A program made the position numbers and the translations under genes. A stretch of 62,446 bases of DNA, the filler included, from Basidioascus undulatus (taxonomy: Eukaryota): the NCBI GenBank assembly GCA_000826855.1. It is 12 parts of 12 records of this genome, joined end to end, with 100 filler letters (N's around TTAATTAATTAA, not from the genome) between each part and the next. Parts side by side here need not be neighbours in the genome. Positions count along the whole stretch, not along the records: positions 52,155 to 57,251 come from JTLS01002005.1; 11 more parts are not named here. One strand, written 5' to 3'. The notes below the pieces were generated by a model, which did not search any database, had not been told where the DNA came from, and saw nothing but the letters and a program-made list of their open reading frames with translations. Positions 52,155-52,233 of the stretch are shown one piece after another; positions within the stretch are counted from its first letter, which is position 1, and every line of letters starts with the position of its first letter.

Positions 52155-52226
52155 TCAGGGGGTTGCAGGTTCGATCCCTGCGTCGGTCACGGCCGGCTGG
52201 CTCAATGGTAGAGTATCTGACTACGA
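52155..52226 (+). tRNA. tRNA-Arg(ACG) with halves in permuted order (3' half 52155-52189, 5' half 52191-52226)
   Basis: 3' half TCAGG GGGTT GCAGG TTCGATC CCTGC GTCGGTC A, then a 1-nt spacer C, then 5' half GGCCGGC TG GCTC AATGGTA GAGT A TCTGA CT ACG A. The halves pair into a complete cloverleaf. Confidence 0.75.
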
Positions 52227-52227
52227 C

Positions 52228-52233
52228 TTTTTT
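52228..52233 (+). terminator. Pol III terminator (T6)
   Basis: TTTTTT begins 1 nt after the end of the tRNA 5' half. Confidence 0.6.

Follow-up and report, generated by a model that had tools for sequence, protein, structure and literature searches.

Permuted halves of a tRNA-Arg(ACG) in a dispersed multi-copy family of Basidioascus undulatus: a possible tRNA-derived repeat

tRNA-derived SINEs, including dimeric ones, are a known class of repeats, and their classic tail is A-rich or LINE-like. Permuted tRNA genes of type II, in which the break falls at 37/38, are reportedly present in Cyanidioschyzon merolae, Ostreococcus, Micromonas and the Bigelowiella nucleomorph, and are said to have been described by Soma et al. 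in 2007 and by Maruyama et al. in 2010. In the portions of PMC3978253 and PMC13578239 considered here, permuted tRNA genes are on record for no organisms other than a few algae, one nucleomorph and a single archaeon; the former names only C. merolae, Ostreococcus, Micromonas, the B. natans nucleomorph and T. pendens, and the latter, a 2026 review, still names such genes only for algae. According to Table 1 of PMC3978253, the genes are mostly of type II, almost all occur once per anticodon, and none is an Arg(ACG) gene. The intervening sequence between the halves is 5-74 nt long in the eukaryotic entries of that table, and a length of 1 nt is given only for the tRNA-Tyr of Thermofilum. The same source describes the order of B box before A box as unsuited to TFIIIC, and its section 10 proposes two origins of permuted genes, namely tandem duplication, or reverse transcription of a permuted or circular pre-tRNA. 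Our literature search for permuted tRNAs in fungi and for circularly permuted tRNAs in Basidiomycota returned no fungal report, in agreement with the initial annotation of the present locus, which had been aware of none. A search for fungal tRNA-derived SINEs likewise returned no fungal example, only unrelated papers.

The window, that is, the whole stretch of B. undulatus DNA analyzed here (positions 1-62446), consists of 12 contigs of 5095-5156 nt each, joined by spacers of the form N44-TTAATTAATTAA-N44, so that features in different contigs are unlinked. One reading frame in the window matches Pfam Tim54, which we take to be a fungal family, and from this match the host is likely a fungus; a protein search with a stop-to-stop frame returned no match. 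In the first 79 bases of the contig at 52155-57251, the 3′ half of a tRNA-Arg(ACG) lies upstream of its own 5′ half on the same strand. The 3′ half (52155-52189, plus strand; tRNA positions 39-73) was assigned from its letters, the Rfam tRNA model and ARAGORN on the rotated sequence, and contains the 3′ strand of the anticodon stem, the variable loop, the T-arm with the B box inside it (52168-52178), the 3′ strand of the acceptor stem and the discriminator A. Its first base, 52155 (tRNA position 39), is also the first base of the contig. A single C at 52190 (plus strand), which is evident from the letters and is spanned with 0 mismatches by record 4 of sequencing run X1 and record 13 of run X2, separates the discriminator A73 from G1; it is either what a permuted gene would have as its “intervening sequence” or a spacer of 1 nt where two units adjoin head to tail. 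The 5′ half (52191-52226, plus strand; positions 1-37) contains the 5′ strand of the acceptor stem, the D-arm, the 5′ strand of the anticodon stem, the anticodon ACG and A37, and was assigned from its letters and its identity to canonical genes. With the A box at 52198-52208, the B box precedes the A box in the visible part, as the initial annotation had stated. The 5′ half is followed by one C (52227) and six Ts (52228-52233), which together form a Pol III-terminator-like run (52227-52233, plus strand), as judged from the letters and from loose contig ends from 52231-52238. The downstream flank (52234-52454, plus strand) is unique and single-copy, with a depth of 22.5 in X1 (record 8).

When the two halves are rejoined in normal order, ARAGORN calls a tRNA-Arg(ACG) with each of the four bases at position 38, and it calls no tRNA on the sequence in its native order. 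The permuted halves that had been annotated at 52155-52233 are upheld in both coordinates and letters. In the rebuilt cloverleaf, the acceptor stem is 7 bp long and includes two G-U pairs, and the anticodon stem is 5 bp long and includes one U-G pair. The match between the halves is beyond chance, because 12 of the 12 stem pairs between them can form (a calculated chance of ~8e-6 with G-U pairs allowed), because the 5′ half shares 30-32 of 36 positions with canonical genes, and because the junction is found in read-derived contigs. Rfam aligns the 3′ half to positions 38-71 of the tRNA model, cut at the 5′ end, with a score of 15.9 bits. Thermodynamically, the 79 nt fold no better than shuffled sequences do (z = 0.35), a measure that is uninformative for tRNAs. 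A T-arm pattern allowing up to 3 mismatches finds no second 3′ half in the window, its only other match being one unrelated site at 7093-7109; the 3′ half is thus absent downstream, as previously claimed. None of the 20-mers of the element is repeated elsewhere in the window, and there are no overlaps among the window's contig ends.

Read-derived 31-mer contigs of public sequencing runs were aligned to 52155-52454. The runs were chosen for containing 52155-54154, and none of those listed is recorded as RNA. Three were used, namely X1 (2014, possibly the source), X2 (2025, from another study) and X3 (from the sample of X2, a small share, with a library type that is only guessed), and the aligned contigs number 90 (42 from X1, 44 from X2 and 4 from X3). 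Genes less than 90% alike are excluded from this alignment, and flank contigs that share only 30 bases with the repeat are possibly missed by it. The joint at 52189-52191, across which the initial annotation had set the two halves side by side, lies in read-derived contigs of both X1 and X2 at high depth with 0 mismatches. Record 4 of X1 spans 52160-52212 (0 mismatches, depth 298) and record 3 of X1 spans 52160-52215 (1 mismatch, depth 175), and the junction contigs of X2 (records 13, 12 and 11) have depths of 650, 473 and 47, respectively. The depth of long contigs ranges from 15.8 to 22.5 in X1 and from 31.6 to 60.3 in X2. These values suggest a copy number of ~25 for the junction, of the same order from X1 and X2, although summed contig depth is not equal to copy number and heterozygosity could halve the estimate. 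rDNA or an organelle as the source of the high depth was rejected, as the flanks are many and at single-copy depth.

Ten X1 contigs and ten X2 contigs exit at 52231-52238, just past the T-run, each into a different flank, and in all copies seen the end consists of C and at least four Ts. At least 10 other loci share the permuted layout and have their own flank right after the T-run. Among the 42 contigs of X1, 30 are 99% or more alike, 9 are 95-99% alike and 3 are 90-95% alike, and two sequence variants dominate at high copy number. Diverged full copies in the same order are found on long contigs (records 1 and 9, with 6 mismatches in 79). Another diverged copy (records 2 and 10) has 5 mismatches in 57 and a unique flank up to 52159. 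The arrangement is real DNA and belongs to a dispersed multi-copy repeat family. The uniform end of the copies suggests that the unit has been copied whole and not maintained gene by gene.

A pattern search of metagenomes with the 5′ half retrieved nine loci (L001-L009), all of which (9/9) have the ordinary order and an A at position 38. Their identity to the 5′ half in the window is 30-32 of 36 positions. Five of the nine (L001, L003, L005, L006 and L008) carry a 7-11-nt intron exactly at 37/38, and these intron-bearing loci are the closest to the window's halves. TATA-like motifs are found 30-45 nt upstream of the related canonical genes. Judged from these relatives, the window's unit apparently goes back to an ordinary Arg(ACG) gene of fungal type that was broken where the intron lies. 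We have also observed that the flanks of L001, L003 (the same as L005), L006 and L008 are mutually alike for more than 100 nt on both sides, and that a second T-run lies downstream; the canonical gene at these loci seems to sit inside a larger repeated unit of another eukaryote. The idea that the T-run region in the window is the old trailer of a normal gene was dropped, the likeness of the downstream flank to the canonical flanks being within the range of shuffled sequences. A degenerate junction pattern had 0 matches in metagenome contigs, prokaryote genomes and viral contigs, collections with few or no fungi in which a zero count is no evidence of rarity.

The upstream side of the copies was visible in two cases. 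In the diverged copy of records 2 and 10, the sequence before 52159 is unique and has no resemblance to the 5′ half, and this copy looks like a 5′-truncated member. It is the sole copy with a visible upstream flank of this kind, and no TATA motif occurs in the 30 upstream letters shown. A different arrangement is present in record 17 of X3, which reads 52182-52211, then 6 other letters, then 52155-52211. The base before 52155 in this record is A, a plausible position 38. Read backward from the 3′ half, the record thus has this A, five more letters and positions 1-22 of the same tRNA, and the piece of positions 1-22 is itself preceded by an acceptor 3′ strand and a C. The result is a 63-nt head-to-tail unit without an anticodon arm, seen in one contig of one run, and the upstream unit would give an order of A box then B box. 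The initial annotation had named a tandem arrangement or a normal 5′ half upstream as what would speak against its reading. Part of such an arrangement does exist in X3, where a partial tRNA unit (positions 1-22 plus 6 letters) stands head-to-tail with the 3′ half, but in one contig only, and no tandem joint of the X3 type occurs in the X1 or X2 contigs. Among the 90 contigs of X1, X2 and X3, none has an ordinary continuation from 37 to 38/39 or an intron after 37, although contigs cannot prove absence; nor does any of the contigs show the 5′ flank of a normal gene ahead of G1 or the trailer of one beyond A73.

Several other features of the window were noted. On the neighboring contig, 50205-50260 (plus strand) matches the Rfam tRNA model with 40.9 bits over only 56 nt. 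The acceptor stem, D-arm and T-arm are present, but the whole anticodon arm, which takes up 15 model positions, is lacking, and there is no T-run after the match. The genome may contain several anticodon-less tRNA-like sequences, because the architecture of 50205-50260 is that of the 63-nt unit in record 17 of X3. At 54234-56348 (minus strand), a long open frame, serine-rich with acidic runs and broken by apparent introns, resembles a nucleolar Nopp140/SRP40-type protein gene. A hairpin at 36023-36097 (plus strand) gives weak matches to several microRNA precursor models that are unrelated to one another, all of them falling far short of the gathering score, and is probably a simple inverted repeat.

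We consider it about an even chance (a probability of roughly 0.5) that these 79 bases form the right-hand end of a single copy of a dispersed tRNA-Arg(ACG)-derived unit, which is made of head-to-tail tRNA pieces with a Pol III-type terminator and has spread as a unit. Such a unit would consist, in order, of a tRNA or tRNA-like body upstream (the contig includes no more of it than positions 39-73), one C, a second set of positions 1-37, and the T-run. The upstream part of most copies would be a tRNA body. Transcription by Pol III could start from the A and B boxes of this upstream body, or from an upstream element, and would stop at the T-run. The unit could then have multiplied as a whole, most simply if its Pol III transcript was reverse-transcribed into DNA in a SINE-like manner; spread of this kind would give all copies the same end base plus T-run within unique flanks. 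The permuted order may have arisen incidentally, from the truncation of a tandem join at the intron position 37/38, and the decoding tRNA-Arg of the cell need not come from this unit.

Several observations argue for the tRNA-derived repeat, namely its copy number, the identical ends of the copies, their spread of divergence, the apparent 5′ truncation of one copy, the tandem unit in X3, the lack of fungal precedent for permuted genes and the ordinary order of the nine related metagenome Arg(ACG) genes. Two statements of PMC3978253 point the same way, one on the poor fit of the B-before-A order to TFIIIC and one on known permuted genes being listed almost all once per anticodon. Other observations argue against it. 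No ordinary continuation from 37 to 38 and no intron was seen in X1, X2 or X3, yet a fungus needs tRNA-Arg(ACG), and if no canonical Arg(ACG) gene exists, the permuted copies must be working genes. The two dominant high-copy variants also resemble a tRNA gene family. The units end in a T-run and not in the A-rich or LINE-like tail of classic SINEs. The visible order is B box before A box, which leaves an internal promoter only if the upstream part supplies one. Finally, the tandem unit of X3 was seen in a single contig of a single run whose library type is uncertain, with no such joint in X1 or X2.

The main alternative is that the copies form a working family of circularly permuted tRNA-Arg(ACG) genes of type II with the junction at 37/38, a possibility that we regard as tentative. 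An upstream promoter would drive a transcript running through the 3′ half, the C, the 5′ half and the T-run, from which the splicing endonuclease would trim leader and trailer. tRNA ligase would then circularize the product by linking 37 to 38, after which RNase P and RNase Z would open the acceptor end and thereby remove the C, and CCA would be added. That the halves rebuild a complete cloverleaf is consistent with such genes, as is the end of the 5′ half exactly at 37, the intron site in five of the nine related canonical genes. The T-run is present in all copies seen, and the likeness stops there; at least one copy (records 2 and 10) has unique DNA directly upstream of its 3′ half; no ordinary-order joint was found in the 42 + 44 + 4 contigs; and two dominant near-identical variants fit a tRNA gene family. 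The TATA-like motifs upstream of related genes make TFIIIC-free transcription conceivable, and PMC3978253, in the part considered here, says likewise for some fungi.

Weighing against working permuted genes, the contig starts at position 39 and is thus without position 38, leader and promoter, whereas the sole visible upstream flank, of 30 letters, has no TATA and belongs to a copy with 5 mismatches in 57. About 25 copies is a high number for one anticodon in a 35-Mb assembly, and the permuted form would have had to replace the whole gene family. At 1 nt, the intervening sequence falls below the range of all eukaryotic entries in Table 1 of PMC3978253 (5-74 nt). The X3 contig has a partial tRNA unit upstream and not a plain leader, the scans with the junction pattern returned 0 relatives from collections that are poor in fungi, and our literature search found no fungal report. 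The permuted-tRNA interpretation of the initial annotation therefore stands in part: the permuted order is real and multi-copy, but ~25 copies are unlike the published permuted genes, and X3 has a tandem unit upstream. In its full form, the proposal would be that the main Arg(ACG) tRNA of this organism is made from a dozen or more permuted genes with a one-base intervening sequence, through a circular RNA and by ordinary enzymes, the genes possibly having been spread by retroposition of their own transcript. We regard this proposal as doubtful, though worth weighing.

It is rather unlikely that a complete normal tRNA-Arg(ACG) gene, located immediately before the contig start, is followed by the C, a duplicated 5′ half and the T-run. 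In this case the tRNA would mature in the usual way, and RNase Z would release the extra half as a 3′ trailer. A contig break inside the repeat, such as is seen here, would be expected of a repeat that continues upstream, and a complete gene would restore the promoter order of A box then B box. The tRNA-5S fusion genes of Yarrowia are a precedent for co-transcripts of a tRNA with another RNA. However, no joint of the form 37-A38-39 was found in X1, X2 or X3, even though the X3 joint, with a 30-nt side, was detected. The sole predecessor of 52155 seen (in X3) is without positions 23-37, and one copy (records 2 and 10) has unique DNA upstream. The tRNA-derived repeat and the complete upstream gene differ only in the intactness of the upstream body.

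A chimeric join, at assembly or at a contig end, of two tRNA halves not adjacent in this way in the genome is highly improbable: the feature does lie at the very start of a short contig, and the assembly is fragmented, with homopolymer runs at the ends of two of the 12 contigs (26078 and 52054), but read-derived 31-mer contigs span the junction with 0 mismatches at depths of 298 (X1) and 650 (X2) in studies 11 years apart, and the longer contigs of diverged copies (records 1, 2, 9 and 10) keep the same order. Two other candidates were rejected. An LTR primer-binding site does not fit, there being no CCA complement beside the acceptor strand and both halves being in sense. Exon 1 of an intron-containing gene does not fit either, as 10 or more different flanks follow the T-run and no 3′ half lies downstream.

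If the copies are a working permuted family, they would be the first permuted tRNA genes in fungi or in any opisthokont, and the first multi-copy permuted tRNA family. A fungal case would imply that the ordinary opisthokont set of tRNA-processing enzymes can handle permuted tRNAs, and it would offer a culturable system with many copies. It would also mean that an essential tRNA is missed by standard tRNA finders in this lineage, as ARAGORN was blank here. If, on the other hand, the unit is a tRNA-derived repeat, it would be a present-day instance of the tandem-join intermediate that has been proposed to explain how permuted genes arose, and a class of repeat that ends in a Pol III terminator and breaks short-read assemblies.

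Among known systems, the bacterial family YrlA, a Y-RNA-like RNA with a permuted tRNA-like module, shows one likeness to the locus. The Rfam model of YrlA (RF02553) gives a partial match at 52157-52221 with 30.3 bits, against a gathering score of 69. The locus shares with YrlA the order of T-arm, closed acceptor-like stem and D-arm, but differs from this bacterial family in that the anticodon loop is kept and no Ro-binding stem was seen. We read the match as a consequence of the rotated order and not as membership.

The tRNA-derived SINEs resemble the present family in being tRNA-derived and in occurring as tens of dispersed copies whose flanks are unique and whose divergence varies; one copy here is also apparently 5′-truncated, and one variant has an internal deletion and a tandem unit. 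Unlike those SINEs, the family has the B box before the A box in its visible part, its visible repeat is only about 80-85 nt long, and its end is a T-run directly after position 37, with no A-rich or LINE-derived tail. With the type II genes of algae and the nucleomorph, the locus shares a 3′ half upstream of the 5′ half on one strand, an apparent break at 37/38, a T-stretch right after the 5′ half and none between the halves, and the B box before the A box. It differs from them in its host, which is probably a fungus and not an alga or archaeon, and in its anticodon ACG, which is absent from Table 1 of PMC3978253. The 1-nt intervening sequence contrasts with the 5-74 nt of the eukaryotic type II genes in PMC3978253, as do the ~25 dispersed copies with the genes listed there, almost all of which occur once per anticodon. 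A further parallel is the tandem-duplication intermediate of PMC3978253. Although the model, in the part of that source considered here, concerns a single locus and the present family is multi-copy and dispersed, both have head-to-tail tRNA units joined at their acceptor ends. As in that intermediate, the outer halves have decayed, the upstream one being without its anticodon arm (in X3) and the downstream one being cut at 37 by the T-run, and the related canonical genes carry an intron at 37/38.
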